Source: Escherichia coli
GTDB lineage: Bacteria; Pseudomonadota; Gammaproteobacteria; Enterobacterales; Enterobacteriaceae
Strand: one strand, 5' to 3'
NCBI RefSeq assembly: GCF_030013595.1
Contig: NZ_CP122768.1
Length of the DNA stretch: 64,000 nucleotides
Shown: one piece after another, positions 13,081-36,531 of the stretch
Layout: each line of letters opens with the position of its first letter
Numbering within the stretch: position 1 is the first letter of the stretch
Program-made: the position numbers and the translations under genes
Notes under the pieces: generated by a model
Databases searched by the model: none
Told to the model about the DNA's origin: nothing
The model's input: only the letters and a program-made list of their open reading frames with translations

Positions 13081-13112
13081 ACAAAATCCCAGATGCGCCC
13101 CTAAAAAGCGCA

Positions 13113-13160
13113 CGGACCGTCCCCTCGCCCCTCTGGGGAGAGGGTTAGGGTGAGGGGAAC
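13113..13160. repeat. GC-rich interspersed palindromic repeat (boxC-like), copy 1
   Basis: cggaccgtcccctcgcccctctggggagagggttagggtgaggggaac; a near-identical copy occurs at 27843-27891. Confidence 0.55.
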
Positions 13161-13182
13161 ATACAGCATCCGGCGATCACCA

Positions 13183-15186: not shown

Positions 15187-15205
15187 ATAACACTCCGTGG
15201 CTGGT

Positions 15206-16156: not shown

Positions 16157-16444
16157 AGGAAATACTCCTTGAAAAGTAAAGTGTTAGATGAGTGCGTTAA
16201 TTCACACTTCTGAGAAATTTCGCTAAACGCATCAAAAAAGCATAGCAGACAGGCATGGTATTGCTGGATTAAGCAGGTAACATCAGTGTTATAGGATTAT
16301 TACCAAAACATTATATTAATGGTGAGAGTTTGGACTTGCTCAAAGTCTGTAGACTCCGGCAAGGTAATAATGTGCGCCACGTTGTGGGCAGGGGCTGTTG
16401 CCCACACACTTTATTTGTGAACGTTACGTGAAAGGAACAACCAA

Positions 16445-18724: not shown

Positions 18725-18741
18725 TTCATTCTTAACTCTCA

Positions 18742-18776
18742 CGCTTACCCTGAATATTCAGGGTAAGCGGTTTTCC
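18742..18776 (+). terminator. Rho-independent terminator of maeB
   Basis: CGCTTACCCTGAatatTCAGGGTAAGCG followed by gTTTTcc. Confidence 0.75.
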
Positions 18777-19016
18777 TGAAATATATTAGTAAAGCTTATT
18801 ACTGAGTTTACGAATAATAAAAAAAGCAGTATATGAAATATCTCGATATTATTTTATTTATATTCATGCGTCGCATATGAAAGTTTATTCATAACAGTAA
18901 ATATCTCTCCATTCTTAGTGATCTACCTCACCTTTTAAACGCGCTTGCCGAATTTTGTTATTTACTCTGACGAAAAATTGTCACGATACACGAAAGTTTT
19001 TCACAGGCGGCGACTC

Positions 19017-19352
19017 ATGGATAAAGAACGCATCATTCAGGAATTTGTGCCCGGTAAACAGGTCACACTGGCGCATCTCATCGCGCATCCCGGCGAGGAA
19101 CTGGCGAAGAAAATCGGCGTTCCTGATGCGGGCGCAATCGGCATTATGACGCTAACTCCCGGCGAAACGGCGATGATCGCCGGTGATTTAGCACTAAAAG
19201 CCGCCGATGTGCATATCGGTTTTCTCGACCGTTTTAGCGGCGCGTTGGTGATTTATGGCTCGGTGGGTGCAGTAGAAGAAGCGTTATCACAAACCGTCAG
19301 CGGTTTAGGGCGTTTATTAAATTATACGCTTTGTGAAATGACCAAAAGTTAA
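19017..19352 (+). CDS. eutS: Bacterial microcompartment shell protein EutS
   Basis: 111 aa from [15 protein letters not shown]...; first gene of the eut operon. Confidence 0.85.
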
Positions 19353-19364
19353 TACGAGGCATTC

Positions 19365-19844
19365 ATGAAACGAATTGCGTTTGTGGGTACCGTCGGGGCA
19401 GGAAAAACAACGTTATTTAATGCGTTGCAGGGAGATTATACCCTCGCCAGAAAAACGCAGGCCGTAGAATTTAATGATAAGGGTGATATTGATACGCCGG
19501 GTGAATATTTTAGCCATCCCCGCTGGTATCACGCCTTAATTACCACGCTACAGGATGTGGACATGCTGATCTATGTCCACGGCGCGAATGACCCGGAAAG
19601 TCGGTTGCCTGCCGGGTTGCTGGATATTGGCGTCAGCAAACGGCAAATCGCCGTCATCAGTAAAACGGACATGCCAGATGCTGACGTCGCCGCAACGCGA
19701 AAGTTATTGCTTGAGACGGGCTTCGAAGAGCCGATTTTCGAGCTAAACAGCTACGACCCGCAAAGCGTGCAGCAACTGGTGGATTATCTGGCATCTCTCA
19801 CCAAACAGGAGGAAGCAGGTGAAAAAACTCATCACAGCGAATGA
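19365..19844 (+). CDS. eutP: Ethanolamine utilisation GTPase/kinase-like protein EutP
   Basis: 159 aa, P-loop GTVGAGKTTLF. Confidence 0.85.
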   Translation: MKRIAFVGTVGAGKTTLFNALQGDYTLARKTQAVEFNDKGDIDTPGEYFSHPRWYHALITTLQDVDMLIYVHGANDPESRLPAGLLDIGVSKRQIAVISKTDMPDADVAATRKLLLETGFEEPIFELNSYDPQSVQQLVDYLASLTKQEEAGEKTHHSE

Positions 19845-20520
19845 TATTCGTGAAGCACACGCGCGCGGCGAACAGGCAATGTCCGTGGTTCTGCGCGCCA
19901 GCATTATTACCCCGGAAGCCCGTGAAGTGGCAGATCTACTGGGTTTTACCATCACTGAATGTGATGAATCGACCCCGGTAACGGCGTCCGTTCCCGCCTG
20001 CGTGCCAGCCGATAAAACCGAAAGCCAGCGTATCCGCGAAACCATCATCGCCCAGCTACCGGAAGGCCAGTTTACCGAAAGCCTGGTCGCGCAGCTGATG
20101 GAAAAAGTGATGAAGGAAAAACAGTCACTGGAGCAGGGTGCAATGCAGCCGAGTTTCAAATCGGTTACCGGCAAAGGCGGCATCAAAGTGATTGATGGCA
20201 GCAGCGTCAAGTTTGGTCGTTTTGACGGCGCACAGCCACACTGCGTCGGATTAACGGATCTGGTCACCGGAGACGACGGCAGCAGCATGGCCGCTGGTTT
20301 TATGCAGTGGGAGAACGCCTTCTTCCCGTGGACCCTGAACTATGACGAAATCGACATGGTACTGGAAGGGGAACTGCACGTTCGCCACGAAGGCGAAACC
20401 ATGATCGCCAAAGCAGGCGACGTGATGTTTATCCCGAAAGGCTCCAGCATCGAATTTGGTACGACATCCAGCGTGAAATTCCTGTATGTCGCCTGGCCGG
20501 CTAACTGGCAATCCCTATGA
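19819..20520 (+). CDS. eutQ: Cupin-domain protein EutQ
   Basis: 233 aa; overlaps eutP by 26 bp. Confidence 0.85.
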   Translation: MKKLITANDIREAHARGEQAMSVVLRASIITPEAREVADLLGFTITECDESTPVTASVPACVPADKTESQRIRETIIAQLPEGQFTESLVAQLMEKVMKEKQSLEQGAMQPSFKSVTGKGGIKVIDGSSVKFGRFDGAQPHCVGLTDLVTGDDGSSMAAGFMQWENAFFPWTLNYDEIDMVLEGELHVRHEGETMIAKAGDVMFIPKGSSIEFGTTSSVKFLYVAWPANWQSL

Positions 20521-21320
20521 AAGATTTCATCACCGAAGCATGGCTAAGAGCGAACCATACGCTCAGCGAAGGCGCAGAGATCCATCTCCCTGCGGACAGT
20601 CGCCTGACGCCCTCTGCCCGGGAGCTACTGGAAAGCCGCCATCTGCGCATCAAGTTTATTGACGAGCAGGGCCGCCTGTTTGTTGACGATGAACAGCAGC
20701 AGCCGCAGCCCGTTCACGGGCTGACCAGTAGCGATGAACATCCGCAGGCGTGCTGCGAACTGTGCCGCCAGCCGGTGGCAAAAAAGCCGGACACTCTGAC
20801 TCACCTGTCGGCGGAAAAAATGGTCGCCAAAAGCGATCCGCGCCTCGGTTTTCGCGCGGTTCTCGACAGCACCATTGCGCTGGCAGTGTGGCTGCAAATT
20901 GAACTGGCAGAACCGTGGCAGCCGTGGCTGGCGGACATCCGCTCGCGTCTTGGCAATATTATGCGTGCCGATGCGCTGGGGGAACCGCTGGCCTGCCAGG
21001 CGATTGTCGGGCTTTCTGACGAAGATCTGCATCGGCTTTCTCACCAGCCGCTGCGCTATCTTGGTCACGATCATCTGGTGCCGGAAGCCAGCCACGGGCG
21101 CGATGCGGCGTTACTCAATCTGCTACGCACCAAAGTGCGGGAAACCGAAACCGTAGCGGCGCAGGTATTTATCACCCGCAGCTTTGAAGTATTACGCCCG
21201 GACATCTTGCAGGCGCTGAACCGCCTTTCCAGCACGGTCTACGTGATGATGATCCTGAGCGTAGCGAAACAACCGCTAACGGTGAAGCAGATCCAACAAC
21301 GACTGGGGGAAACGCAATGA
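20517..21320 (+). CDS. eutT: Cob(I)alamin adenosyltransferase EutT
   Basis: 267 aa; ATGA start/stop overlap with eutQ; operon position. Confidence 0.85.
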
Positions 21321-22333
21321 TTATTGAACGTTGTCGTGAACTGGCGTTGCGAGCGCCCGCCAGAGTGGTTTTTCCGGATGCGTTAGATCAACGTGTGCTG
21401 AAAGCCGCGCAATATTTACATCAACAAGGTCTGGCAACGCCCATTCTGGTCGCCAGCCCGTTTGAACTTCGTCAGTTTGCGCTCAGTCATGGCGTGGCGA
21501 TGGACGGGGTTCAGGTTATTGATCCACAGAGCAATCTTGCTATGCGGGAAGCGTTTGCGCAGCGTTGGTTGGCCCGTGCGGGCGAAAAAACGCCGCCGGA
21601 TGCGCTGGAAAAACTCACCGATCCGCTGATGTTCGCTGCCGCAATGGTCAGCGCCGGGATAGCGGATGTCTGTATCGCGGGCAATCTCTCTTCCACGGCG
21701 AATGTGCTGCGTGCCGGATTACGCATTATTGGCTTACAGCCAGGCTGTAAAACGCTCTCCTCCATTTTCCTGATGCTGCCACAGTACAGTGGCCCCGCAT
21801 TGGGCTTTGCCGATTGCAGCGTAGTGCCACAGCCGACGGCGGCGCAACTGGCGGATATCGCGCTTGCCAGCGCCGAAACCTGGCGCGCCATCACCGGAGA
21901 AGAACCGCGCGTGGCGATGTTGTCGTTTTCCAGTAACGGCAGCGCCCGTCACCCCTGCGTTGCCAACGTCCAGCAGGCGACAGAAATCGTCCGTGAGCGC
22001 GCGCCGCAGTTGGTAGTCGATGGCGAGTTGCAGTTTGACGCCGCCTTCGTGCCGGAAGTGGCGGCGCAAAAAGCGCCTGCCAGCCCGCTACAAGGCAAGG
22101 CCAATGTGATGGTTTTTCCGTCGCTGGAAGCCGGAAATATTGGCTACAAAATCGCACAACGACTCGGCGGATATCGTGCCGTCGGGCCATTGATACAAGG
22201 GCTTGCCGCGCCGATGCACGATCTCTCTCGTGGTTGTAGCGTGCAGGAAATTATCGAGCTGGCGCTGGTGGCAGCTGTGCCGCGTCAGACAGAAGTGAAC
22301 CGCGAAAGCAGTTTACAAACACTGGTTGAATGA
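21317..22333 (+). CDS. eutD: Phosphotransacetylase EutD (EutI)
   Basis: 338 aa, PTA-family motifs. Confidence 0.88.
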
Positions 22334-22371
22334 ACGGTCCCGTTCTGGACCCTGATAAAGAGGAAAGCACA

Positions 22372-22665
22372 ATGGAAGCATTAGGAATGATCGAAACCCG
22401 GGGCCTGGTTGCACTGATTGAGGCTTCTGACGCGATGGTGAAAGCTGCGCGCGTCAAGCTGGTTGGTGTTAAGCAGATTGGCGGCGGCCTGTGTACTGCC
22501 ATGGTTCGTGGTGATGTTGCAGCCTGTAAAGCCGCGACCGACGCAGGTGCTGCAGCGGCACAGCGTATCGGCGAGCTGGTATCTGTACACGTTATCCCGC
22601 GTCCGCACGGCGACCTGGAAGAAGTCTTCCCGATCGGCCTGAAAGGCGATAGCAGCAACCTGTAA
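22372..22665 (+). CDS. eutM: Major BMC-H shell protein EutM
   Basis: 97 aa from [28 protein letters not shown]...; ORF track extends 14 codons upstream to 22330. Confidence 0.9.
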
Positions 22666-22771
22666 TCACCCTGTGTGACGTCGATTCGGGCGTCACGCTC
22701 TCTCCTTTTTCAGTTTACCTTCCGCGGAGGGTAGGGGGAGCTTTTACCTGAAATACGCCACGGAGGCGGGT

Positions 22772-23059
22772 ATGAAACTGGCAGTCGTCACTGGACAAAT
22801 TGTTTGTACCGTACGCCATCACGGACTGGCGCATGACAAATTGCTGATGGTGGAAATGATTGATCCACAAGGTAATCCTGACGGGCAATGCGCCGTCGCC
22901 ATCGACAATATTGGCGCGGGAACCGGGGAGTGGGTGTTACTGGTGAGTGGCAGTTCCGCCCGCCAGGCGCATAAAAGCGAAACGTCACCGGTCGATCTGT
23001 GCGTGATTGGCATCGTCGATGAGGTGGTGTCTGGCGGTCAGGTAATTTTCCACAAATAA
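22772..23059 (+). CDS. eutN: BMC vertex (pentamer) protein EutN
   Basis: 95 aa, MKLAVVTGQIVCTVRHHGL.... Confidence 0.88.
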   Translation: MKLAVVTGQIVCTVRHHGLAHDKLLMVEMIDPQGNPDGQCAVAIDNIGAGTGEWVLLVSGSSARQAHKSETSPVDLCVIGIVDEVVSGGQVIFHK

Positions 23060-23070
23060 GGCAGAACATC

Positions 23071-24474
23071 ATGAATCAACAGGATATTGAACAGGTGGTG
23101 AAAGCGGTACTGCTGAAAATGCAAAGCAGTGACACGCCGCCCGCCGCCCTTCATGAGATGGGTGTTTTCGCGTCCCTGGATGACGCCGTTGCGGCAGCCA
23201 AAGTCGCCCAGCAAGGGTTAAAAAGCGTGGCAATGCGCCAGTTAGCCATTGCTGCCATTCGTGAGGCAGGCGAAAAACACGCCAGAGATTTAGCGGAACT
23301 TGCCGTCAGTGAAACCGGCATGGGGCGCGTCGAAGATAAATTTGCCAAAAACGTCGCTCAGGCGCGCGGCACACCAGGCGTTGAGTGCCTCTCTCCGCAA
23401 GTGCTGACGGGCGACAACGGCCTGACTTTAATTGAAAACGCGCCCTGGGGCGTGGTGGCTTCGGTGACGCCTTCCACTAACCCGGCGGCAACCGTAATTA
23501 ACAACGCCATCAGCCTGATTGCCGCGGGCAACAGCGTCATTTTTGCCCCGCATCCGGCGGCGAAAAAAGTCTCCCAGCGGGCGATTACGCTGCTCAACCA
23601 GGCGATTGTTGCCGCAGGCGGGCCGGAAAACTTACTGGTTACTGTGGTCAATCCGGATATCGAAACCGCGCAACGTTTGTTCAAGTTTCCGGGTATCGGC
23701 CTTTTGGTGGTGACCGGCGGCGAAGCGGTAGTGGAAGCGGCGCGTAAACACACCAATAAACGTCTGATTGCCGCGGGCGCTGGCAACCCACCGGTAGTGG
23801 TGGATGAAACCGCCGACCTCGCCCGTGCCGCTCAGTCCATCGTCAAAGGCGCTTCTTTCGATAACAACATCATTTGTGCCGACGAAAAGGTACTGATTGT
23901 TGTTGATAGCGTAGCCGATGAACTGATGCGTCTGATGGAAGGCCAGCACGCGGTGAAACTGACCGCAGAGCAGGCGCAGCAGCTGGAACCGGTGTTGCTG
24001 AAAAATATCGACGAGCGCGGAAAAGGCACCGTCAGCCGTGACTGGGTTGGTCGCGATGCGGCGAAAATCGCGGCGGCAATCGGCCTTAAAGTTCCGGAAC
24101 AAACGCGACTGCTGTTTGTAGAAACCACCGCAGAACATCCGTTTGCCGTGACCGAACTGATGATGCCGGTGCTGCCCGTCGTGCGTGTCGCCAACGTGGC
24201 GGATGCCATTGCGCTGGCGGTGAAACTGGAAGGCGGTTGCCACCACACGGCGGCAATGCACTCGCGCAACATCGAGAACATGAACCAGATGGCGAACGCC
24301 ATTGATACCAGCATCTTCGTTAAGAACGGACCGTGCATTGCCGGGCTGGGGCTGGGCGGGGAAGGCTGGACCACCATGACCATCACCACGCCAACCGGTG
24401 AAGGGGTAACCAGCGCGCGTACGTTTGTCCGTCTGCGTCGCTGTGTATTAGTCGATGCGTTTCGCATTGTTTAA
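23071..24474 (+). CDS. eutE: CoA-acylating acetaldehyde dehydrogenase EutE
   Basis: 467 aa aldehyde-dehydrogenase family. Confidence 0.9.
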   Translation: MNQQDIEQVVKAVLLKMQSSDTPPAALHEMGVFASLDDAVAAAKVAQQGLKSVAMRQLAIAAIREAGEKHARDLAELAVSETGMGRVEDKFAKNVAQARGTPGVECLSPQVLTGDNGLTLIENAPWGVVASVTPSTNPAATVINNAISLIAAGNSVIFAPHPAAKKVSQRAITLLNQAIVAAGGPENLLVTVVNPDIETAQRLFKFPGIGLLVVTGGEAVVEAARKHTNKRLIAAGAGNPPVVVDETADLARAAQSIVKGASFDNNIICADEKVLIVVDSVADELMRLMEGQHAVKLTAEQAQQLEPVLLKNIDERGKGTVSRDWVGRDAAKIAAAIGLKVPEQTRLLFVETTAEHPFAVTELMMPVLPVVRVANVADAIALAVKLEGGCHHTAAMHSRNIENMNQMANAIDTSIFVKNGPCIAGLGLGGEGWTTMTITTPTGEGVTSARTFVRLRRCVLVDAFRIV

Positions 24475-24484
24475 GGAGTAACAG

Positions 24485-24910
24485 ATGGCGCACGACGAAC
24501 AATGGCTCACCCCGCGTCTGCAAACGGCGGCAACGCTGTGTAACCAGACGCCTGCCGCAACGGAATCTCCGCTGTGGCTGGGGGGGGATCTGGGCACCTG
24601 CGATGTGGTGTCGATGGTTGTCGACCGCGACGGTCAGCCGGTGGCGGTATGCCTCGACTGGGCCGATGTGGTCCGCGACGGCATCGTCTGGGATTTCTTC
24701 GGTGCGGTCACCATTGTTCGTCGCCATCTCGACACCCTCGAGCAGCAATTCGGTCGCCGTTTTAGCCATGCGGCGACCTCATTTCCTCCAGGTACGGACC
24801 CGCGTATTTCCATCAACGTGCTGGAATCTGCCGGGCTGGAAGTGAGCCATGTGCTGGATGAGCCAACCGCAGTCGCGGATCTGCTGCAACTGGACAACGC
24901 AGGCGTAGTG
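24485..24910 (+). pseudogene. eutJ: eutJ 5' fragment (codons 1-142), interrupted by IS10
   Basis: The reading frame runs straight into the IS10 outside end at 24911; 24485..24910 plus 26249..26659 gives 278 codons with a continuous ...NAGVV|DIGGGTTGIAIV... junction. Confidence 0.85.
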
Positions 24911-24956
24911 CTGATGAATCCCCTAATGATTTTGGTAAAAATCATTAAGTTAAGGT

Positions 24957-25025
24957 GGATACACATCTTGTCATATGATCAAATGGTTTCGCGAAAAATC
25001 AATAATCAGACAACAAGATGTGCGA
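24957..25025 (-). ncRNA. Predicted IS10 antisense RNA-OUT (pOUT transcript), placed by position within IS10
   Basis: Coordinates inferred from the known IS10 layout (transposase start at IS nt 108, matching the ATG at 25018); not independently verified. Confidence 0.4.
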
Positions 25026-26226
25026 ACTCGATATTTTACACGACTCTCTTTACCAATTCTGCCCCGAATTACACTTAAAACGACTCAACAGCTTAACGTT
25101 GGCTTGCCACGCATTACTTGACTGTAAAACTCTCACTCTTACCGAACTTGGCCGTAACCTGCCAACCAAAGCGAGAACAAAACATAACATCAAACGAATC
25201 GACCGATTGTTAGGTAATCGTCACCTCCACAAAGAGCGACTCGCTGTATACCGTTGGCATGCTAGCTTTATCTGTTCGGGCAATACGATGCCCATTGTAC
25301 TTGTTGACTGGTCTGATATTCGTGAGCAAAAACGACTTATGGTATTGCGAGCTTCAGTCGCACTACACGGTCGTTCTGTTACTCTTTATGAGAAAGCGTT
25401 CCCGCTTTCAGAGCAATGTTCAAAGAAAGCTCATGACCAATTTCTAGCCGACCTTGCGAGCATTCTACCGAGTAACACCACACCGCTCATTGTCAGTGAT
25501 GCTGGCTTTAAAGTGCCATGGTATAAATCCGTTGAGAAGCTGGGTTGGTACTGGTTAAGTCGAGTAAGAGGAAAAGTACAATATGCAGACCTAGGAGCGG
25601 AAAACTGGAAACCTATCAGCAACTTACATGATATGTCATCTAGTCACTCAAAGACTTTAGGCTATAAGAGGCTGACTAAAAGCAATCCAATCTCATGCCA
25701 AATTCTATTGTATAAATCTCGCTCTAAAGGCCGAAAAAATCAGCGCTCGACACGGACTCATTGTCACCACCCGTCACCTAAAATCTACTCAGCGTCGGCA
25801 AAGGAGCCATGGGTTCTAGCAACTAACTTACCTGTTGAAATTCGAACACCCAAACAACTTGTTAATATCTATTCGAAGCGAATGCAGATTGAAGAAACCT
25901 TCCGAGACTTGAAAAGTCCTGCCTACGGACTAGGCCTACGCCATAGCCGAACGAGCAGCTCAGAGCGTTTTGATATCATGCTGCTAATCGCCCTGATGCT
26001 TCAACTAACATGTTGGCTTGCGGGCGTTCATGCTCAGAAACAAGGTTGGGACAAGCACTTCCAGGCTAACACAGTCAGAAATCGAAACGTACTCTCAACA
26101 GTTCGCTTAGGCATGGAAGTTTTGCGGCATTCTGGCTACACAATAACAAGGGAAGACTTACTCGTGGCTGCAACCCTACTAGCTCAAAATTTATTCACAC
26201 ATGGTTACGCTTTGGGGAAATTATGA
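25018..26226 (+). CDS. IS10 transposase
   Basis: 402 aa, MCELDILHDSLYQFCPELHLKRLNSL...HGYALGKL; identical at protein level to the copy at 31470..32678. Confidence 0.93.
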   Translation: MCELDILHDSLYQFCPELHLKRLNSLTLACHALLDCKTLTLTELGRNLPTKARTKHNIKRIDRLLGNRHLHKERLAVYRWHASFICSGNTMPIVLVDWSDIREQKRLMVLRASVALHGRSVTLYEKAFPLSEQCSKKAHDQFLADLASILPSNTTPLIVSDAGFKVPWYKSVEKLGWYWLSRVRGKVQYADLGAENWKPISNLHDMSSSHSKTLGYKRLTKSNPISCQILLYKSRSKGRKNQRSTRTHCHHPSPKIYSASAKEPWVLATNLPVEIRTPKQLVNIYSKRMQIEETFRDLKSPAYGLGLRHSRTSSSERFDIMLLIALMLQLTCWLAGVHAQKQGWDKHFQANTVRNRNVLSTVRLGMEVLRHSGYTITREDLLVAATLLAQNLFTHGYALGKL

Positions 26227-26239
26227 GGGGATCTCTCAG

Positions 26240-26659
26240 GGCGTAGTGGATATCGGCGGCGGCACTACCGGCATTGCCATCGTGAAAAAGGGCAAGGTGA
26301 CGTACTCGGCGGATGAAGCCACTGGCGGACATCACATCTCTCTGACTCTCGCCGGAAATCGCCGTATTTCGCTGGAAGAGGCGGAGCAGTACAAGCGCGG
26401 TCACGGTGAAGAGATTTGGCCTGCGGTGAAACCGGTGTACGAAAAAATGGCGGACATTGTCGCCCGGCATATTGAAGGGCAGGGCATTACTGATTTATGG
26501 CTGGCGGGCGGCTCCTGTATGCAACCGGGCGTGGCGGAACTGTTTTGCAAACAATTCCCGGCGTTACAGGTGCATCTACCGCAGCACAGTTTGTTTATGA
26601 CCCCGCTGGCGATCGCCAGTAGCGGGCGAGAGAAAGCGGAGGGGATCTATGCAAAATGA
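26240..26659 (+). pseudogene. eutJ: eutJ 3' fragment (starts with the duplicated 9 bp)
   Basis: In frame with the 5' fragment after removing the IS and one TSD copy; Hsp70/actin-like ATPase motif DIGGGTT. Confidence 0.85.
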
Positions 26660-27836
26660 ATTGCAGACCGCGCTCTTTCAGGCGTTCGATACCCTGAATC
26701 TGCAACGGGTAAAAACATTTAGCGTTCCACCAGTGACGCTTTGCGGTCCGGGCGCGATGAGCAGTTGCGGGCAGCAAGCGCAAACGCGTGGGCTGAAACA
26801 TCTGTTCGTGATGGCAGACAGCTTTTTGCATCAGGCGGGGATGACCGCCGGGCTGACGCGTAGCCTGGCCGTTAAAGGTATCGCCATGACGCTCTGGCCA
26901 TGTCCGGTGGGCGAACCGTGCATCACCGACGTGTGTGCAGCCGTGGCGCAGTTGCGTGAATCGGGTTGCGATGGGGTGATCGCGTTTGGCGGCGGCTCGG
27001 TGCTGGATGCAGCAAAAGCCGTGGCGTTGCTGGTGACGAACCCGGATAGCACGCTGGCAGAGATGTCAGAAACCAGCGTTCTGCAACCGCGCCTGCCGTT
27101 GATTGCCATTCCAACTACCGCCGGAACCGGTTCTGAAACCACCAACGTAACGGTGATTATCGACGCGGTGAGCGGGCGCAAGCAGGTGTTAGCCCACGCC
27201 TCGCTGATGCCGGATGTGGCGATTCTCGACGCTACGCTGACCGAAGGCGTGCCGTCGCATGTCACGGCGATGACCGGTATCGACGCGTTAACCCATGCTA
27301 TTGAAGCGTACAGCGCGCTGAACGCTACACCGTTTACCGACAGCCTGGCGATTGGCGCAATCGCGATGATTGGTAAATCACTGCCGAAAGCGGTGGGCTA
27401 CGGTCATGACCTTGCCGCGCGCGAGAGCATGTTGCTGGCTTCATGCATGGCGGGAATGGCGTTTTCCAGTGCGGGGCTTGGGTTATGCCACGCGATGGCG
27501 CATCAGCCAGGGGCGGCGCTGCATATTCCGCACGGTCTGGCGAACGCTATGTTGCTGCCAACGGTGATGGAATTTAACCGGATGGTTTGTCGTGATCGGT
27601 TTAGCTTGGTTGGTCGGGCGCTGCGAACTAAAAAATCCGACGATCGTGACGCTATTAACGCGGTAAGTGAGCTGATTGCGGAAGTCGGGATTGGTAAACG
27701 ACTGGGCGATATTGGTGCGACATCTGCGCATTACGGCGCATGGGCGCAGGCCGCGCTGGAAGATATTTGTCTGCGCAGCAACCCGCGTACCGCCAGCCTG
27801 GAGCAGATTGTCGGCCTGTACGCAGCGGCGCAATAA
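26649..27836 (+). CDS. eutG: Iron-containing alcohol dehydrogenase EutG
   Basis: 395 aa, Fe-ADH family. Confidence 0.88.
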   Translation: MQNELQTALFQAFDTLNLQRVKTFSVPPVTLCGPGAMSSCGQQAQTRGLKHLFVMADSFLHQAGMTAGLTRSLAVKGIAMTLWPCPVGEPCITDVCAAVAQLRESGCDGVIAFGGGSVLDAAKAVALLVTNPDSTLAEMSETSVLQPRLPLIAIPTTAGTGSETTNVTVIIDAVSGRKQVLAHASLMPDVAILDATLTEGVPSHVTAMTGIDALTHAIEAYSALNATPFTDSLAIGAIAMIGKSLPKAVGYGHDLAARESMLLASCMAGMAFSSAGLGLCHAMAHQPGAALHIPHGLANAMLLPTVMEFNRMVCRDRFSLVGRALRTKKSDDRDAINAVSELIAEVGIGKRLGDIGATSAHYGAWAQAALEDICLRSNPRTASLEQIVGLYAAAQ

Positions 27837-27842
27837 AAGTGT

Positions 27843-27940
27843 ACGGACAGTCCCCTCGCCCCTTTGGGGAGAGGGTTAGGGTGAGGGGAACAGAGTCGCG
27901 CCGGTGCAAACAATTACCCTCACCCCGGCCCCTCGGCTTC
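27843..27940. repeat. GC-rich interspersed palindromic repeat (boxC-like), copy 2, with an extra inverted arm
   Basis: acggacagtcccctcgcccctttggggagagggttagggtgaggggaac, then ttaccctcaccccggcccctcggc, which is partly complementary to it. Confidence 0.55.
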
Positions 27941-28005
27941 CAGAGTGAGGGAAAAACCCACTTTCAGCATTGGCAATAAATAACAACTAACAGGGAGTAA
28001 AGGCG

Positions 28006-29232
28006 ATGGGAATTAACGAAATCATCATGTACATCATGATGTTCTTTATGCTGATAGCTGCCGTAGACAGGATCCTGTCGCAGTTCGGCGGTTCTGCTCG
28101 TTTCCTCGGTAAGTTCGGTAAAAGTATCGAAGGATCCGGCGGGCAGTTTGAAGAAGGCTTTATGGCGATGGGCGCACTGGGCCTGGCGATGGTTGGTATG
28201 ACCGCGCTGGCACCTGTTCTGGCCCACGTACTCGGACCGGTGATTATCCCGGTTTACGAAATGCTCGGTGCAAACCCGTCAATGTTCGCCGGAACACTGC
28301 TGGCGTGCGATATGGGCGGGTTCTTCCTCGCCAAAGAGCTGGCGGGCGGCGACGTAGCAGCGTGGCTATACTCTGGGTTAATTCTCGGGTCGATGATGGG
28401 GCCAACGATTGTGTTTTCCATTCCGGTGGCGCTCGGCATTATCGAACCTTCTGACCGTCGTTATCTGGCGCTCGGCGTGCTGGCGGGCATTGTGACCATT
28501 CCGATTGGCTGTATTGCTGGTGGTCTGGTTGCTATGTACTCCGGTGTGCAGATCAACGGTCAGCCGGTGGAATTCACCTTTGCGCTGATCCTGATGAACA
28601 TGATCCCGGTACTTATCGTTGCGGTGCTGGTGGCGCTGGGGCTGAAATTCATCCCGGAAAAAATGATCAACGGCTTCCAGATCTTCGCCAAATTCCTCGT
28701 TGCATTGATCACCCTCGGTCTTGCTGCCGCGGTAGTGAAATTCCTCCTTGGCTGGGAACTGATCCCGGGCCTTGATCCTATCTTTATGGCCCCTGGCGAC
28801 AAACCCGGTGAAGTGATGCGCGCCATTGAAGTTATCGGTTCTATCTCCTGCGTTCTGTTAGGGGCGTATCCGATGGTGCTGCTGCTGACCCGCTGGTTTG
28901 AAAAACCGCTGATGAGCGTCGGTAAAGTGCTGAATATGAACAACATCGCGGCAGCCGGCATGGTGGCAACGCTTGCCAACAACATCCCGATGTTCGGCAT
29001 GATGAAGCAGATGGATACCCGCGGCAAAGTCATCAACTGCGCCTTCGCCGTTTCCGCTGCTTTCGCCCTGGGCGACCACTTAGGCTTCGCCGCTGCCAAC
29101 ATGAACGCCATGATTTTCCCGATGATTGTCGGCAAATTGATCGGCGGCGTAACGGCGATTGGCGTGGCGATGATGCTGGTGCCAAAAGAAGACGCGACCG
29201 CGGCTAAAACCGAAGCGGAGGCACAATCGTGA
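28006..29232 (+). CDS. eutH: Ethanolamine permease EutH
   Basis: 408 aa polytopic membrane protein. Confidence 0.88.
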   Translation: MGINEIIMYIMMFFMLIAAVDRILSQFGGSARFLGKFGKSIEGSGGQFEEGFMAMGALGLAMVGMTALAPVLAHVLGPVIIPVYEMLGANPSMFAGTLLACDMGGFFLAKELAGGDVAAWLYSGLILGSMMGPTIVFSIPVALGIIEPSDRRYLALGVLAGIVTIPIGCIAGGLVAMYSGVQINGQPVEFTFALILMNMIPVLIVAVLVALGLKFIPEKMINGFQIFAKFLVALITLGLAAAVVKFLLGWELIPGLDPIFMAPGDKPGEVMRAIEVIGSISCVLLGAYPMVLLLTRWFEKPLMSVGKVLNMNNIAAAGMVATLANNIPMFGMMKQMDTRGKVINCAFAVSAAFALGDHLGFAAANMNAMIFPMIVGKLIGGVTAIGVAMMLVPKEDATAAKTEAEAQS

Positions 29233-30632
29233 ACACTCGCCAGCTACTGAGCGTCGGTATCGATATCGGCACCACCACCACCCAGGTGATTTTCTCCCAC
29301 CTGGAGCTGGTTAACCGTGCGGCGGTGTCGCAGGTGCCGCGCTACGAATTCATCAAACGCGAAATTAGCTGGCAAAGCCCGGTGTTCTTTACCCCTGTCG
29401 ATAAACAGGGTGGTTTAAAAGAAGCGGAACTGAAAACCTTAATCCTCGAGCAATATCAGGCTGCGGGCATTGCGCCGGAAAGCGTTGATTCTGGTGCCAT
29501 CATTATCACCGGTGAAAGCGCAAAAACCCGCAACGCTCGCCCGGCGGTGATGGCGCTCTCCCGGTCGCTGGGCGATTTTGTCGTCGCCAGCGCCGGGCCG
29601 CATCTTGAATCCGTGATCGCCGGACACGGTGCCGGGGCGCAAACCCTTTCTGAACAACGGCTGTGTCGGGTCCTGAATATCGATATCGGCGGTGGCACCG
29701 CGAACTACGCCCTGTTCGATGCCGGAAAAATCAGCGGCACTGCCTGCCTCAACGTCAGCGGTCGCCTGCTGGAAACCGACAGCCAGGGGCGCGTGGTTTA
29801 CGCTCATAAACCGGGGCAGATGATTGTGGATGAGTGCTTCGGTGCCGGTACTGACGCCCGTTCGCTGACTGGCGGGCAGCTGGTGCAGGTTACCCGCCGG
29901 ATGGCAGAGCTGATTGTCGAAGTGATTGACGGAACGCTCTCGCCGCTCGCGCAGGCATTGATGCAAACCGATTTGCTGCCCGCAGGTGTTACGCCCGAAA
30001 TCATTACGCTTTCTGGCGGGGTAGGCGAATGTTATCGCCACCAGCCCACCGACCCGTTCTGTTTTGCCGATATCGGCCCGCTTCTGGCAACGGCGCTGCA
30101 TGACCATCCGCGTCTGCGTGAGATGAACGTGCAGTTTCCGGCGCAAACCGTGCGCGCCACGGTGATTGGCGCGGGTGCTCATACCCTTTCGCTCTCTGGC
30201 AGCACAATCTGGCTGGAGGGCGTACAACTGCCGCTGCGCAATTTGCCAGTGGCGATCCCGATTGATGAAACGGATCTGGTCAGTGCCTGGCAACAGGCGC
30301 TGATTCAACTGGATCTTTGCCCCAAAACTGACGCGTACGTGCTGGCGCTTCCCGCCTCGCTGCCTGTGCGTTACGCCGCGGTACTGACGGTCATCAACGC
30401 GCTGGTCGATTTCGTCGCGCGTTTTCCGAATCCGCATCCCCTGCTGGTGGTGGCCGGGCAGGACTTTGGTAAAGCTCTGGGCATGTTGTTGCGCCCACAG
30501 CTACAACAACTCCCGTTGGCAGTCATTGACGAAGTGATTGTCCGCGCGGGGGACTATATCGACATTGGTACGCCTCTTTTTGGCGGATCGGTTGTGCCGG
30601 TGACGGTGAAATCACTCGCATTTCCTTCCTGA
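29229..30632 (+). CDS. eutA: Ethanolamine ammonia-lyase reactivase EutA
   Basis: 467 aa; ATGA-type 4-bp overlap with eutH. Confidence 0.88.
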   Translation: MNTRQLLSVGIDIGTTTTQVIFSHLELVNRAAVSQVPRYEFIKREISWQSPVFFTPVDKQGGLKEAELKTLILEQYQAAGIAPESVDSGAIIITGESAKTRNARPAVMALSRSLGDFVVASAGPHLESVIAGHGAGAQTLSEQRLCRVLNIDIGGGTANYALFDAGKISGTACLNVSGRLLETDSQGRVVYAHKPGQMIVDECFGAGTDARSLTGGQLVQVTRRMAELIVEVIDGTLSPLAQALMQTDLLPAGVTPEIITLSGGVGECYRHQPTDPFCFADIGPLLATALHDHPRLREMNVQFPAQTVRATVIGAGAHTLSLSGSTIWLEGVQLPLRNLPVAIPIDETDLVSAWQQALIQLDLCPKTDAYVLALPASLPVRYAAVLTVINALVDFVARFPNPHPLLVVAGQDFGKALGMLLRPQLQQLPLAVIDEVIVRAGDYIDIGTPLFGGSVVPVTVKSLAFPS

Positions 30633-30643
30633 GGGAACGACTT

Positions 30644-31456
30644 ATGAAACTAAAGACCACATTGTTCGGCAATGTATATCAGTTTAAGGATGTAAAAGAG
30701 GTGCTGGCTAAAGCCAACGAACTGCGTTCGGGGGATGTGCTGGCGGGCGTTGCTGCGGCAAGTTCACAGGAGCGCGTGGCGGCAAAGCAGGTGTTGTCGG
30801 AAATGACCGTAGCGGACATCCGCAATAATCCGGTGATTGCCTATGAAGATGACTGCGTGACGCGGCTGATTCAGGACGACGTTAACGAAACGGCCTATAA
30901 CCAGATTAAAAACTGGAGCATCAGCGAACTGCGTGAGTATGTGCTGAGCGATGAAATCAGCGTGGACGACATTGCCTTTACCCGCAAAGGGCTGACCTCG
31001 GAAGTGGTGGCGGCGGTAGCGAAGATTTGCTCCAACGCGGACCTGATCTACAGCGCGAAGAAAATGCCGGTGATCAAAAAGGCCAATACCACCATCGGTA
31101 TTCCGGGCACCTTTAGCGCCCGTTTGCAGCCGAACGATACCCGTGACGACGTGCAAAGTATCGCCGCGCAAATCTACGAAGGGCTTTCCTTCGGGGTGGG
31201 CGATGCGGTGATTGGCGTTAACCCGGTGACTGACGACGTGGAAAACTTAAGCCGCGTGTTGGATACCATTTATGGCGTGATCGACAAATTCAACATCCCA
31301 ACTCAGGGCTGCGTACTGGCGCACGTCACCACCCAGATCGAAGCGATCCGTCGTGGCGCACCAGGCGGGCTGATTTTCCAGAGTATCTGTGGCAGCGAAA
31401 AAGGGCTGAAAGAGTTTGGCGTAGAGCTGGCGATGCTCGATGAAGCACGCGCAGTG
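30644..31456 (+). pseudogene. eutB: eutB 5' fragment (ethanolamine ammonia-lyase large subunit), interrupted by IS10
   Basis: MKLKTTLFGNVYQFKDVKEVLAKANELRSGDV...; frame enters the IS10 inside end at 31457. 30644..31456 plus 32795..33343 gives 454 codons (453 aa). Confidence 0.88.
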
Positions 31457-31469
31457 CTGAGAGATCCCC

Positions 31470-32678
31470 TCATAATTTCCCCAAAGCGTAACCATGTGTG
31501 AATAAATTTTGAGCTAGTAGGGTTGCAGCCACGAGTAAGTCTTCCCTTGTTATTGTGTAGCCAGAATGCCGCAAAACTTCCATGCCTAAGCGAACTGTTG
31601 AGAGTACGTTTCGATTTCTGACTGTGTTAGCCTGGAAGTGCTTGTCCCAACCTTGTTTCTGAGCATGAACGCCCGCAAGCCAACATGTTAGTTGAAGCAT
31701 CAGGGCGATTAGCAGCATGATATCAAAACGCTCTGAGCTGCTCGTTCGGCTATGGCGTAGGCCTAGTCCGTAGGCAGGACTTTTCAAGTCTCGGAAGGTT
31801 TCTTCAATCTGCATTCGCTTCGAATAGATATTAACAAGTTGTTTGGGTGTTCGAATTTCAACAGGTAAGTTAGTTGCTAGAACCCATGGCTCCTTTGCCG
31901 ACGCTGAGTAGATTTTAGGTGACGGGTGGTGACAATGAGTCCGTGTCGAGCGCTGATTTTTTCGGCCTTTAGAGCGAGATTTATACAATAGAATTTGGCA
32001 TGAGATTGGATTGCTTTTAGTCAGCCTCTTATAGCCTAAAGTCTTTGAGTGACTAGATGACATATCATGTAAGTTGCTGATAGGTTTCCAGTTTTCCGCT
32101 CCTAGGTCTGCATATTGTACTTTTCCTCTTACTCGACTTAACCAGTACCAACCCAGCTTCTCAACGGATTTATACCATGGCACTTTAAAGCCAGCATCAC
32201 TGACAATGAGCGGTGTGGTGTTACTCGGTAGAATGCTCGCAAGGTCGGCTAGAAATTGGTCATGAGCTTTCTTTGAACATTGCTCTGAAAGCGGGAACGC
32301 TTTCTCATAAAGAGTAACAGAACGACCGTGTAGTGCGACTGAAGCTCGCAATACCATAAGTCGTTTTTGCTCACGAATATCAGACCAGTCAACAAGTACA
32401 ATGGGCATCGTATTGCCCGAACAGATAAAGCTAGCATGCCAACGGTATACAGCGAGTCGCTCTTTGTGGAGGTGACGATTACCTAACAATCGGTCGATTC
32501 GTTTGATGTTATGTTTTGTTCTCGCTTTGGTTGGCAGGTTACGGCCAAGTTCGGTAAGAGTGAGAGTTTTACAGTCAAGTAATGCGTGGCAAGCCAACGT
32601 TAAGCTGTTGAGTCGTTTTAAGTGTAATTCGGGGCAGAATTGGTAAAGAGAGTCGTGTAAAATATCGAGTTCGCACAT
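31470..32678 (-). CDS. IS10 transposase
   Basis: 402 aa, identical to the copy at 25018..26226. Confidence 0.93.
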   Translation of the reverse strand: MCELDILHDSLYQFCPELHLKRLNSLTLACHALLDCKTLTLTELGRNLPTKARTKHNIKRIDRLLGNRHLHKERLAVYRWHASFICSGNTMPIVLVDWSDIREQKRLMVLRASVALHGRSVTLYEKAFPLSEQCSKKAHDQFLADLASILPSNTTPLIVSDAGFKVPWYKSVEKLGWYWLSRVRGKVQYADLGAENWKPISNLHDMSSSHSKTLGYKRLTKSNPISCQILLYKSRSKGRKNQRSTRTHCHHPSPKIYSASAKEPWVLATNLPVEIRTPKQLVNIYSKRMQIEETFRDLKSPAYGLGLRHSRTSSSERFDIMLLIALMLQLTCWLAGVHAQKQGWDKHFQANTVRNRNVLSTVRLGMEVLRHSGYTITREDLLVAATLLAQNLFTHGYALGKL

Positions 32679-32739
32679 CTTGTTGTCTGATTATTGATTT
32701 TTCGCGAAACCATTTGATCATATGACAAGATGTGTATCC
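32671..32739 (+). ncRNA. Predicted IS10 antisense RNA-OUT of copy 2, placed by position
   Basis: Mirror of the copy-1 placement; pOUT points toward the outside end at 32785 and onward into eutB'-eutC. Confidence 0.4.
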
Positions 32740-32785
32740 ACCTTAACTTAATGATTTTTACCAAAATCATTAGGGGATTCATCAG

Positions 32786-33343
32786 CGCGCAGTGGGCGCG
32801 GAGTTCAACCGTATCGCCGGGGAAAACTGTCTCTACTTCGAAACCGGGCAAGGCTCGGCGCTGTCCGCTGGCGCGAACTTCGGCGCAGACCAGGTGACGA
32901 TGGAAGCGCGTAACTATGGGCTGGCGCGTCATTACGATCCGTTTATCGTCAACACCGTGGTCGGTTTTATTGGGCCGGAGTATCTCTACAACGACCGCCA
33001 GATTATCCGTGCGGGCTTAGAAGATCACTTTATGGGCAAGCTGAGCGGCATCTCGATGGGCTGTGACTGCTGCTACACCAACCACGCTGACGCTGATCAG
33101 AACCTCAACGAAAACCTGATGATCCTGCTCGCCATCGCAGGCTGTAACTACATCATGGGGATGCCGCTGGGCGATGACATCATGCTCAACTATCAGACCA
33201 CCGCATTCCACGACACTGCCACTGTGCGTCAGTTACTCAACCTGCGCCCGTCACCGGAGTTTGAACGCTGGCTGGAAAGCATGGGCATTATGGCAAACGG
33301 TCGCCTGACCAAACGGGCGGGCGATCCGTCACTGTTCTTCTGA
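32786..33343 (+). pseudogene. eutB: eutB 3' fragment (starts with the duplicated 9 bp)
   Basis: ...RAVGAEFNRIAGENCLYFETGQG... continues the EutB frame and ends at the TGA at 33341-33343. Confidence 0.88.
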
Positions 33344-33363
33344 TGACGCGGAGATAACACATC

Positions 33364-34251
33364 ATGGATCAAAAACAGATTGAAGAAATTGTACGCAGCG
33401 TGATGGCGTCAATGGGACAAGCGGCCCCCGCGCCGTCAGAAGCAAAGTGCGCCACCACCACCTGTGCGGCACCGGTGACCTCTGAAAGCTGTGCGCTGGA
33501 TTTAGGTTCTGCGGAAGCAAAAGCGTGGATTGGTGTTGAAAACCCGCATCGCGCAGACGTATTAACAGAACTGCGTCGCAGCACCGTGGCCCGCGTTTGT
33601 ACCGGTCGTGCCGGTCCGCGTCCGCGCACCCAGGCGTTGCTGCGTTTCCTGGCCGATCACTCTCGTTCGAAAGATACCGTTCTGAAAGAAGTACCGGAAG
33701 AGTGGGTGAAAGCGCAGGGCTTGCTGGAAGTCCGCTCCGAAATCAGCGACAAAAATCTCTACCTGACTCGTCCGGATATGGGCCGCCGCCTGTGTGCAGA
33801 AGCTGTTGAAGCGCTGAAAGCACAGTGTGTTGCTAATCCGGACGTGCAGGTCGTTATTTCTGATGGCCTGTCAACTGATGCGATCACCGTGAACTACGAA
33901 GAGATCCTGCCGCCGCTGATGGCGGGCCTGAAGCAAGCCGGGCTGAAAGTCGGTACGCCATTCTTTGTACGTTATGGTCGCGTGAAGATTGAAGATCAGA
34001 TCGGTGAGATCCTAGGCGCGAAAGTAGTGATCCTGCTGGTGGGCGAACGTCCGGGGTTGGGGCAGTCAGAAAGCCTCTCCTGCTACGCCGTTTACTCGCC
34101 GCGTATGGCGACCACCGTTGAGGCCGATCGCACCTGTATCTCTAACATTCACCAGGGCGGCACGCCGCCGGTTGAAGCCGCAGCCGTCATTGTGGATTTG
34201 GCGAAACGTATGCTGGAGCAGAAAGCATCCGGCATCAACATGACCCGATAA
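33364..34251 (+). CDS. eutC: Ethanolamine ammonia-lyase small subunit EutC
   Basis: 295 aa, operon position immediately after eutB. Confidence 0.88.
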
Positions 34252-34260
34252 GGAGGCATC

Positions 34261-34920
34261 ATGCCAGCTTTAGATTTGATTCGACCGTCGGTAACCGCCA
34301 TGCGGGTGATTGCCTCCGTTAACGCCGAATTTGCACGTGAACTGAAATTGCCGCCGCATATTCGTAGCCTCGGGCTGATTTCTGCTGATTCAGATGACGT
34401 CACCTACATTGCGGCTGACGAAGCGACCAAGCAGGCGATGGTCGAAGTGGTATATGGTCGCTCGCTGTATGCGGGCGCTGCACACGGCCCGTCACCGACT
34501 GCCGGTGAGGTGCTGATTATGCTTGGTGGACCAAACCCGGCGGAAGTGCGTGCTGGTCTGGATGCGATGGTTGCGAATATTGAAAATGGCGCTGCTTTCC
34601 AGTGGGCAAATGACGCAGAAAACACAGCCTTCCTGGCACATGTAGTTTCGCGTACCGGTTCTTATCTCTCATCAACCGCCGGGATCACGCTTGGCGATCC
34701 GATGGCGTATCTGGTGGCACCGCCGCTGGAAGCGACCTACGGCATTGATGCAGCGTTGAAATCTGCCGACGTGCAGTTGGTGACCTATGTCCCGCCACCG
34801 TCTGAAACCAACTACTCGGCAGCATTTTTAACCGGTAGCCAGGCCGCGTGTAAAGCAGCCTGTAACGCCTTTACCGATGCAGTGCTGGAAATCGCGCGTA
34901 ATCCAATCCAGCGTGCGTAA
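34261..34920 (+). CDS. eutL: BMC-T (tandem-domain) shell protein EutL
   Basis: 219 aa. Confidence 0.88.
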
Positions 34921-34926
34921 CGGAGG

Positions 34927-35433
34927 TTGCCGATGATCAATGCACTGGGATTGCTGGAAGTGGACGGCATGGTCGCCGCGATAGATGCAGCTGATGCCAT
35001 GCTCAAAGCAGCTAACGTTCGTCTGCTCAGTCACGAAGTGCTTGACCCTGGTCGCCTAACGCTGGTGGTGGAAGGCGATCTGGCGGCGTGTCGTGCGGCG
35101 CTGGACGCAGGTTGTGCTGCCGCGATGCGTACCGGGCGTGTCATCAGCCGTAAGGAGATCGGTCGGCCAGACGATGACACCCAGTGGCTGGTTACTGGCT
35201 TTAACCGCCAGCCGAAGCAACCCGTAAAGGAACCCGACGCGCCAGTTATCGTCGCGGAATCTGCTGACGAGTTGTTGGCGCTGTTAACATCAGTACGTCA
35301 GGGAATGACGGCAGGAGAAGTGGCTGCCCACTTTGGCTGGCCGCTGGAAAAAGCCAGAAATGCGCTCGAACAGCTCTTTTCTGCCGGGACGTTACGTAAA
35401 CGCAGTAGTCGTTACCGTCTCAAGCCCCATTAA
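34927..35433 (+). CDS. eutK: BMC shell protein EutK (BMC domain plus C-terminal nucleic-acid-binding-like tail)
   Basis: 168 aa, MINALGLLEVDGMVAAIDAADAMLKAANV.... Confidence 0.85.
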   Translation: MPMINALGLLEVDGMVAAIDAADAMLKAANVRLLSHEVLDPGRLTLVVEGDLAACRAALDAGCAAAMRTGRVISRKEIGRPDDDTQWLVTGFNRQPKQPVKEPDAPVIVAESADELLALLTSVRQGMTAGEVAAHFGWPLEKARNALEQLFSAGTLRKRSSRYRLKPH

Positions 35434-35478
35434 CCTGTCGGAGGTGCCGGGTGTCCTACAACACCCGGCATTAACATC

Positions 35479-36531
35479 ATGAAAAAGACCCGTACAGCCA
35501 ATTTGCACCATCTTTATCATGAACCCTTACCCGAAAACCTGAAGCTCACGCCGAAGGTCGAAGTGGATAATGTTCATCAACGACAGACAACGGACGTCTA
35601 TGAACATGCTTTGACAATTACCGCCTGGCAGCAGATTTACGATCAGCTGCATCCGGGCAAGTTTCATGGTGAATTTACGGAAATTCTACTCGATGATATT
35701 CAGGTTTTTCGTGAATACACTGGTCTGGCGCTGCGTCAGTCGTGCCTGGTCTGGCCGAACTCGTTCTGGTTTGGCATTCCGGCGACGCGCGGTGAGCTGG
35801 GATTTATCGGTTCGCAATGTCTGGGAAGCGCAGAAATTGCGACGCGCCCGGGTGGAACTGAGTTTGAATTAAGTACGCCGGACGATTACACGATCCTTGG
35901 CGTAGTGCTTTCTGAAGATGTCATCACTCGTCAGGCTAACTTTTTGCATAATCCGGATCGGGTATTACATATGCTGCGTAGCCAGTCGGCGCTGGAAGTG
36001 AAAGAGCAGCATAAAGCCGCGCTGTGGGGCTTTGTCCAACAGGCGCTGGCGACGTTTTGCGAGAACCCGGAAAATCTCCATCAGCCTGCAGTGCGAAAAG
36101 TGCTGGGGGATAATTTGCTAATGGCGATGGGGGCGATGCTGGAAGAAGCGCAGCCGATGATGACGGCGGAAAGCATCAGTCATCAGAGTTACCGTCGATT
36201 GCTTTCCCGCGCCCGTGAATATGTGCTGGAAAACATGTCCGAACCGGTGACGGTGCTGGACTTGTGTAATCAACTGCATGTCAGCCGCCGCACGCTACAA
36301 AACGCGTTTCACGCCATTTTGGGCATTGGTCCGAACGCGTGGCTGAAACGTATTCGCCTGAACGCCGTGCGCCGCGAACTCATAAGTCCGTGGTCACAAA
36401 GCACAACGGTAAAAGACGCCGCCATGCAGTGGGGATTCTGGCATCTTGGGCAATTTGCCACGGATTATCAGCAACTGTTTGCCGAGAAGCCGTCACTGAC
36501 GCTGCATCAGCGGATGCGAGAGTGGGGGTGA
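35479..36531 (+). CDS. eutR: AraC-family transcriptional activator of the eut operon
   Basis: 350 aa; C-terminal AraC helix-turn-helix ([36 protein letters not shown]). Confidence 0.88.

Follow-up and report, generated by a model that had tools for sequence, protein, structure and literature searches.

The eut operon of Escherichia coli K-12 contains a cryptic prophage, CPZ-55. Published work covers where it lies, between eutA and eutB, the 8 bp duplicated at its ends, how rarely it occurs outside K-12 and what it does to the operon (PMC6379469, PMC6652756, PMC7617246). The MG1655 record has an entry 'cryptic prophage CPZ-55' that spans 2558691-2565480, with eutB starting on one side of it at 2558679 and eutA stopping on the other at 2565481; the element measures 6,790 bp and has the core CTTCCTGA at both ends, the same 8-bp duplicated core that has been described for the prophage (PMC6379469). 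The first-pass annotation of the DNA analysed here had placed CPZ-55 at the eutA/eutB junction of K-12, and the MG1655 annotation and the three papers bear this out. The 8-bp sequence is the crossover core for the IntZ-type integrase of CPZ-55 and of related islands. One such IntZ-type island lies at the eutA/eutB junction of the UPEC strain U71 (PMC6652756), and in strain 13P460A the site is taken by another island. Islands of this kind share with the locus described below the chromosomal site, which here is empty, and differ in comprising >14 kb, with an IntZ-like integrase of ~88% nucleotide identity and other cargo, e.g. an AIPR-family protein.

A second described system that bears on this locus is Tn10, in which two inverted IS10 copies (IS10-Left and IS10-Right) have their outside ends facing outward, with RNA-OUT directed outward at both ends of the element. 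All of these features recur in the window, by which we mean the whole 64-kb stretch of DNA that was analysed. The DNA between the two copies is here native eut DNA, not tet genes, and the window's two IS10 copies differ from those of Tn10 in being identical and in each having its own target duplication.

An empty junction between eutA and eutB

A direct reading of the sequence, in which chance is not at issue, places the eutA stop and the eutB start 11 nt apart. That eutB follows eutA directly across an 11-bp gap, as the first-pass annotation had proposed, is confirmed by this reading and by the identities of the genes: the eutA ORF reaches 1066 bits with NF007991, the NCBIfam equivalog model for EutA (cut-off 799), and has the same length as b2451 of MG1655. 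Neither CPZ-55 DNA (blastn, E<=1e-3) nor an IntZ-like protein (tblastn) found a match anywhere in the 64-kb window, and the duplication of the core is absent from it. Since the core is present just once, nothing is integrated at the junction. A GAGG at 30631-30634 is likely to serve eutB as ribosome-binding site (Shine-Dalgarno sequence), and it overlaps the stop codon of eutA. With 11 nt between them, the two genes lie in one transcript, and they may be translationally coupled.

Table 1. Features of the eut region in the window; eut gene coordinates were transferred from the annotation of HCP5S3_I2.
Feature	Position	Strand	Description
eut operon, eutS to eutR (eutSPQTDMNEJGHABCLKR)	19017..36531	+	17 genes, complete; collinear with K-12, CFT073 and HCP5S3_I2
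eutJ	24485..26659	+	split after codon 142 by IS10 copy 1; NF011660 matches both fragments; reconstructed ORF 837 nt
IS10 copy 1	24911..26239	+	1,329 bp; transposase ORF 25018-26226 (+); outside end left
Target duplication of IS10 copy 1	24902-24910 and 26240-26248		GGCGTAGTG, 9 bp
RNA-OUT of IS10 copy 1	24956-25025	-	Rfam RF00240
eutA	29229..30632	+	intact, 467 aa; ethanolamine ammonia-lyase reactivase; GTG start; TGA stop 30630-30632
8-bp core, one copy	30625..30632	+	CTTCCTGA; unoccupied attachment site; includes the eutA stop codon
eutA-eutB spacer	30633..30643	+	GGGAACGACTT, 11 nt; eutB ATG at 30644
eutB, 5' part	30644..31456	+	codons 1-271; NF011649 profile positions 2-269
Target duplication of IS10 copy 2	31448-31456 and 32786-32794		CGCGCAGTG, 9 bp
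IS10 copy 2	31457..32785	-	1,329 bp, 100% identical to copy 1, inverted; transposase ORF 31470-32678 (-); outside end right
RNA-OUT of IS10 copy 2	32671..32740	+	Rfam RF00240; outward, toward the eutB 3' part and eutC-eutL-eutK-eutR
eutB, 3' part	32795..33343	+	codons 272-453 plus stop; NF011649 profile positions 272-451

The MG1655 locus (b2441-b2451) shares with the window all 17 eut genes and their order, as well as the eutA 3' end, core, 11-nt spacer and eutB start. In MG1655, 6,790 bp with intZ and yffL to yffS, which are on the opposite strand, separate the eutA stop from the spacer, and the core is duplicated, whereas the window lacks CPZ-55 DNA and is just 96-97% identical to MG1655 in the flanking eut genes. 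In the uninterrupted operons of CFT073, Nissle 1917 and HCP5S3_I2, the last of these a pig isolate, eutA adjoins eutB across the 11-nt spacer as it does here, and Nissle 1917 is 100% identical to the window's 411-bp junction query; what sets the window apart from all three is the additional presence of IS10 in eutJ and eutB.

An alignment of eut loci with K-12 and other E. coli, the check suggested in the first-pass annotation, found K-12 MG1655 occupied and most others contiguous. Among complete E. coli genomes in RefSeq, the junction is empty in 4,964 of 5,426 (91.5%). A full CPZ-55 occurs in 213 genomes, essentially all of them K-12 or strains derived from it, and in ~200 further genomes intZ and/or the yffS end are matched at 80-90% identity.

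Relationship to K-12 and the origin of the empty site

The window is most closely related to two isolates from UK pigs, with 27 SNPs over 48.6 kb, and both have an empty eutA-eutB junction. Identity to the closest relative, the pig isolate HCP5S3_I2, is ~99.93-99.96%. Compared with MG1655, identity lies between 94.9 and 98.4% in every aligned block across the 64 kb, short of the near-identity (~100% to the MG1655 backbone) that marks K-12. The absence of CPZ-55 had been read in the first-pass annotation as placing the genome outside the K-12 lineage. This conclusion is correct, but the absence alone is insufficient to reach it: the empty junction is the majority state, and a missing CPZ-55 is unfit as the sole marker for excluding K-12 because K-12 substr. 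GM4792 lacks it as well. GM4792 has the same empty 11-nt junction, identical in sequence to that of the window, within flanks that show 0 mismatches to MG1655 in 6.4 kb; the window is 96-97% identical to these flanks. The decisive evidence is instead the divergence from MG1655 across the 64-kb window, and judged by this sequence comparison the window's strain is not K-12, a hybrid with K-12 DNA outside these 64 kb being a formal possibility only.

GM4792 demonstrates that K-12 derivatives without the prophage exist, and the window could in principle come from one of them, CPZ-55 having been lost by precise excision or engineered deletion, in which case its absence would say nothing about lineage. 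Such an origin is next to impossible to reconcile with a window that departs from MG1655 at 1.6-5% of the positions in each block over 64 kb, that lacks yfeS, that has a different eutG-eutH spacer and that is nearly identical to HCP5S3_I2 instead. Loss of an element within the window's own lineage is a separate matter. That this lineage formerly held CPZ-55 or another IntZ-type island, and that precise excision left a secondarily empty site, would fit with the recurrent use of the spot for integration (among 5,423 matching genomes, 459 have a junction that is not contiguous, and islands of at least two kinds occupy it, including that of U71; PMC6652756) and with the scarless excision seen in GM4792; we nonetheless regard it as very unlikely, given an empty state that prevails among the genomes surveyed and is shared by the two closest relatives, the lack of any element remnant in the window, and parsimony, under which the simpler history is one without any occupancy. 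We put at about 95% the probability that this is an ordinary E. coli eutA-eutB junction without an integrative element, probably in the ancestral state, in a strain outside K-12.

Two IS10 insertions in eutJ and eutB

The elements that split eutJ and eutB have the hallmarks of IS10 (IS4 family): a length of 1,329 bp, imperfect 23-bp terminal inverted repeats (17/23 positions match), a 402-aa transposase ORF scoring 404 bits against the IS4-family model NF033591 (cut-off 152), a 9-bp target duplication and, near the outside end, the antisense RNA-OUT, which in both copies matches RF00240 with 98.8 bits (gathering score 41) and reads outward. PGAP names the transposase of identical copies 'IS4-like element ISVsa5 family transposase'. 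Measured against GCTNAGC, which we take to be the IS10 target consensus, the two duplications each fit 4/6 specified positions.

Of the 5,426 complete E. coli genomes in RefSeq, not one has this pair of insertions; the best RefSeq matches to a 12-kb query reach 88% coverage, and each has one IS10, placed differently. The exact 40-nt eutB::IS10 junction pattern had no match in the GTDB representative genomes. An IS10 hotspot in eut was considered and discarded, the three other cases, in eutQ, eutE and the maeB-eutS spacer, all being at different sites.

The geometry of the two copies is exactly that of Tn10. They are inverted with their outside ends outward, and form inverted-repeat arms of 1,330 nt (the 1,329-bp IS plus one chance-matching base) that are 100% complementary and lie 5,217 nt apart. 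It is nevertheless extremely improbable that the 7.9-kb segment at 24911-32785 moved in as one composite IS10 transposon. No 9-bp duplication is shared around the whole, the outer flanks (GGCGTAGTG and CGCGCAGTG) being unlike; each copy instead lies within its own matching duplication, and gene order is unchanged, with native eutJ'-eutG-eutH-eutA-'eutB in their native order between the copies and 2 SNPs in those 5,217 bp relative to HCP5S3_I2, which has no IS10 there. The same collinearity and near-identity to HCP5S3_I2 speak against the IS10-flanked segment having been inverted or imported. The separate target duplications imply two insertions, which assembled the structure in situ.

Two IS10 copies of identical sequence, inserted independently of each other by cut-and-paste transposition, would inactivate the operon, that in eutB (30644-33343 overall) causing loss of the ethanolamine ammonia-lyase large subunit. 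Each insertion is expected to exert polar effects on the genes downstream of it; in copy 2 the outward promoter (pOUT; RNA-OUT, + strand) may read through into eutC-eutL-eutK-eutR and give these genes some IS-driven transcription. A Eut-negative phenotype is predicted.

State of the eut operon

The locus has the gene content of the canonical 17-gene, long-form enterobacterial eut operon, with NCBIfam matches for EutA, EutB, EutC, EutH and EutJ. Its genes are not all intact: the fragments of eutJ and eutB each score below the whole-protein cut-off. When both IS10 copies were removed in silico, all 17 eut ORFs were full length and free of nonsense and frameshift mutations. Removal of IS10 and one duplicate from eutB restores a 1,362-nt ORF of 453 aa that differs at 3 residues from the crystallised E. 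coli EutB (3ABO). The statement in the first-pass annotation that the two IS10 insertions are the only lesions in the operon thus stands for gross lesions. It is not fully borne out at the level of single residues, where five missense changes in eut are private to the window's lineage (EutP H130Y, EutJ V34G, EutA G177S, EutB G137S and EutB T385I).

Whether these changes mark further functional lesions, in an operon decaying under relaxed selection or already impaired by missense mutation before IS10 arrived, turns on small numbers. Nonsynonymous changes make up 5/6 of the window-derived substitutions in eut and 2/6 of those outside it, a difference (5:1 vs 2:4) that is not significant (two-sided Fisher p ~0.24) at such tiny counts. 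EutB is otherwise nearly invariant, with the same protein accession in HCP5S3_I2 and CFT073 and just 3 residues separating the window from K-12, two of them private, and conservation of G137 extends to Listeria EutB (structure 2QEZ). Against this, the eut ORFs contain no nonsense or frameshift mutation, none of the five substitutions has a known effect, and the change at 24585 (T to G within a G run) may be a sequencing error. On balance we think additional lesions unlikely.

HCP5S3_I2 itself has an annotated internal stop in eutE and another stop in nudK. Both are CCAGG-to-CTAGG changes at Dcm sites and may be base-calling artefacts or the result of 5-methylcytosine deamination; convergent eut inactivation, which the eutE stop might suggest, was rejected on account of this Dcm-site change and possible artefact.

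Two more far-reaching readings, which draw on the Tn10-like geometry and on the very small counts given above, strike us as distinctly doubtful: that the element built in place (24911-32785) could mobilise eutG-eutH-eutA, or that the double IS10 hit and the five missense changes reflect the loss, through selection or drift, of ethanolamine use in a pig-associated E. coli lineage rich in IS10.

The empty site is the usual state of this junction and the facts about CPZ-55 were already known, so that the finding is of little importance in itself. Its value is practical and lies in annotation: the eut operon of this strain is best recorded as having its full set of genes, with eutJ and eutB entered as pseudogenes disrupted by IS10.

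The eutA–eutB junction and its occupancy

The first-pass annotation had eutA followed directly by eutB, 11 nt apart, which was correct as judged from the ORF list, the sequence and NCBIfam matches. ORF 29229-30632 matches the NCBIfam EutA equivalog at 1066 bits (cut-off 799), and EutB was recognised in an N-terminal part (ORF 30644-31501) and a C-terminal part (ORF 32792-33343), with EutH, EutC and a split EutJ as neighbouring genes. The annotation's placement of the K-12 prophage CPZ-55 at this junction is likewise borne out by the MG1655 RefSeq record, where the eutA stop is at 2565481, the eutB start at 2558679, and the prophage (2558691-2565480; 6,790 bp; intZ and yffL to yffS) lies exactly between them. 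When the window was aligned with MG1655, both prophage ends were found to be matched by the 3' end of eutA, with an exact common core of 8 bp, CTTCCTGA, that includes the eutA stop codon. This core is present in the window as a single copy (30625-30632), and neither CPZ-55 DNA nor an IntZ-like coding sequence was found anywhere in its 64 kb. An earlier study described the 8-bp duplication and the position of CPZ-55, and put its prevalence at 8% of 638 strains (PMC6379469); the insertion is characteristic of K-12, with a UPEC strain carrying another prophage in the same site (PMC6652756), and it disrupts eut expression in BW25113 (PMC7617246).

A contiguous 411-bp junction segment was found in 4,964 of 5,426 complete RefSeq E. 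coli genomes (91.5%), and a 2.2-kb junction query returned the identical count of 4,964. Full-length CPZ-55 at ≥99% identity was found in 212 genomes (213 at ≥80% coverage), its carriers being K-12 strains and laboratory derivatives among the matches listed, while in ~200 further genomes intZ and/or the yffS end matched at 80-90% identity. In strain 13P460A, a related integrase adjoins eutB and heads a different, larger island. With both CPZ-55 and related elements found here, the junction is one into which a small family of IntZ-type elements has integrated repeatedly; in the window it is unoccupied, as is usual. Alongside many hypothetical genes, the 13P460A island has an AIPR-family gene (abortive-infection type), and may therefore be a defence-carrying satellite or island.

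Features of the window and of comparison loci
Feature	Position	Description	Basis
eutA	29229-30632	GTG start, 467 aa, TGA stop	ORF list and sequence; NCBIfam
eutA-eutB spacer		11 nt, GGGAACGACTT, between eutA TGA and eutB ATG	sequence
eutB start	30644	ATG	sequence
IS10 copy 1	24911-26239	splits eutJ after codon 142; 9-bp target duplication GGCGTAGTG	
RNA-OUT, IS10 copy 1	24956-25025	- strand	Rfam RF00240
IS10 copy 2	31457-32785	splits eutB after codon 271; 9-bp target duplication CGCGCAGTG	
RNA-OUT, IS10 copy 2	32671-32740	+ strand	Rfam RF00240
IS1397 (IS3 family), orfA	438-968		
IS1397 (IS3 family), orfB	1073-1795		
13P460A island (locus L007)	12177-26624	fills eutA/eutB junction; IntZ-like integrase; pig isolate	
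KFu021 (locus L008)	514-1722	IS10	
NIID080884 (locus L009)	1652-2860	IS10	
LCP30S3_I3 (locus L010)	514-1722	IS10	

Relationship to K-12 and to the closest genomes

The absence of CPZ-55 had been taken to place this genome outside the K-12 lineage. While that conclusion holds, the reasoning does not: in the K-12 substrain GM4792 the junction is empty exactly as in the window, with 0 mismatches to MG1655 in the flanks, so that lack of the prophage alone is insufficient to exclude K-12. It is divergence that excludes K-12, as identity to MG1655 is only 94.9-98.4% in every aligned block of the 64 kb. The window also lacks yfeS and differs from K-12 in the eutG-eutH spacer. Near 51684 (cysM/yfeK) K-12 is longer by ~960 bp in the alignment, which is evidently the yfeS gene; yfeS is not annotated between cysM and yfeK in HCP5S3_I2 or CFT073. 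The spacer (27837-28006), 169 bp long as in HCP5S3_I2, does not align to K-12. This intergenic region is variable, with lengths of 116 bp (KFu021), 216 bp (K-12 and CFT073) and 416 bp (LCP30S3_I3) elsewhere, and it probably consists of REP-type repeats.

Closest to the window are HCP5S3_I2 and LCP30S3_I5, both isolated from pig faeces in the UK. Over 48.6 kb, HCP5S3_I2 and the window are separated by 27 SNPs, and the eutA-eutB junction of HCP5S3_I2 is empty too. HCP5S3_I2 carries a ~0.7-kb IS200/IS605 tnpA insertion that the window lacks at ~40100 (yfeY/yfeX). Its nudK and eutE are annotated with internal stops (positions 8820 and 20600 of its locus, L002), each due to a CCAGG-to-CTAGG change at a Dcm methylation site; these changes may reflect base-calling error or deamination of 5-methylcytosine, and were given no weight as evidence. 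Within window positions 1-2100, one IS1397 connects the 3' part of yphA (53-370) to ypfN/dapE (1852-3207), loci that lie ~80 kb apart in K-12 with essential genes in between. Because the yphA-IS1397 or IS1397-ypfN junction occurs singly in other genomes, and both together in none, the arrangement suggests an IS1397-mediated inversion.

IS10 insertions and the integrity of the eut operon

The two IS10 copies in eut, of 1,329 bp each, are inverted and mutually 100% identical. In each, the IS4-family transposase (402 aa) is intact, and 17 of 23 positions agree between the terminal repeats. Their outside ends face outward, a geometry shared with Tn10. However, import of the pair as a transposon is ruled out, since the 5,217 bp in between are native eutJ'-eutG-eutH-eutA-'eutB that differ from the IS-free HCP5S3_I2 by 2 SNPs, and each copy has its own target duplication, pointing to two independent insertions in place. 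The pair could represent a composite element built in situ and able to move eutG-eutH-eutA, the one mildly unusual reading of the locus. Given the + strand orientation of the copy 2 RNA-OUT, and from what is established for IS10, read-through from pOUT could lead to the eutB 3' fragment and eutC-eutL-eutK-eutR being transcribed to some extent.

When both IS10 copies and one copy of each duplication were removed in silico, all 17 eut ORFs were full-length and free of internal stops, and the reconstructed EutB differed at 3 residues from crystallised E. coli EutB (3ABO). The claim that the IS10 insertions are the operon's only lesions is thereby upheld where gross lesions are concerned; as regards missense changes it is unproven. 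Polarising the 27 SNPs relative to HCP5S3_I2, with MG1655 and CFT073 as outgroups, identified 11 as window-derived, and a twelfth (6213, acrD), where CFT073 has no call, is probably so too. The SNPs lie within 3000-54289, and 11 of these 12 window-branch substitutions are G:C-to-A:T transitions; the sole exception is a T-to-G change at 24585, which falls within a run of G and may be a sequencing error. Nonsynonymous changes account for 5/6 of those in eut (EutP H130Y, EutJ V34G, EutA G177S, EutB G137S and EutB T385I) and 2/6 of those outside; EutB G137 is conserved in Listeria EutB. This pattern, although statistically not significant, fits relaxed constraint after inactivation.

IS10 (ISVsa5) was also found in or beside eut in three unrelated complete genomes, KFu021 (eutQ), NIID080884 (eutE) and LCP30S3_I3 (maeB-eutS spacer), all at sites different from those in the window; such hits are sporadic events in IS10-rich strains. 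Everything at the locus is a known entity: a long-form eut operon, an empty, published CPZ-55 site and standard IS10 insertions. The empty eutA-eutB junction is correctly described, ordinary and already known.
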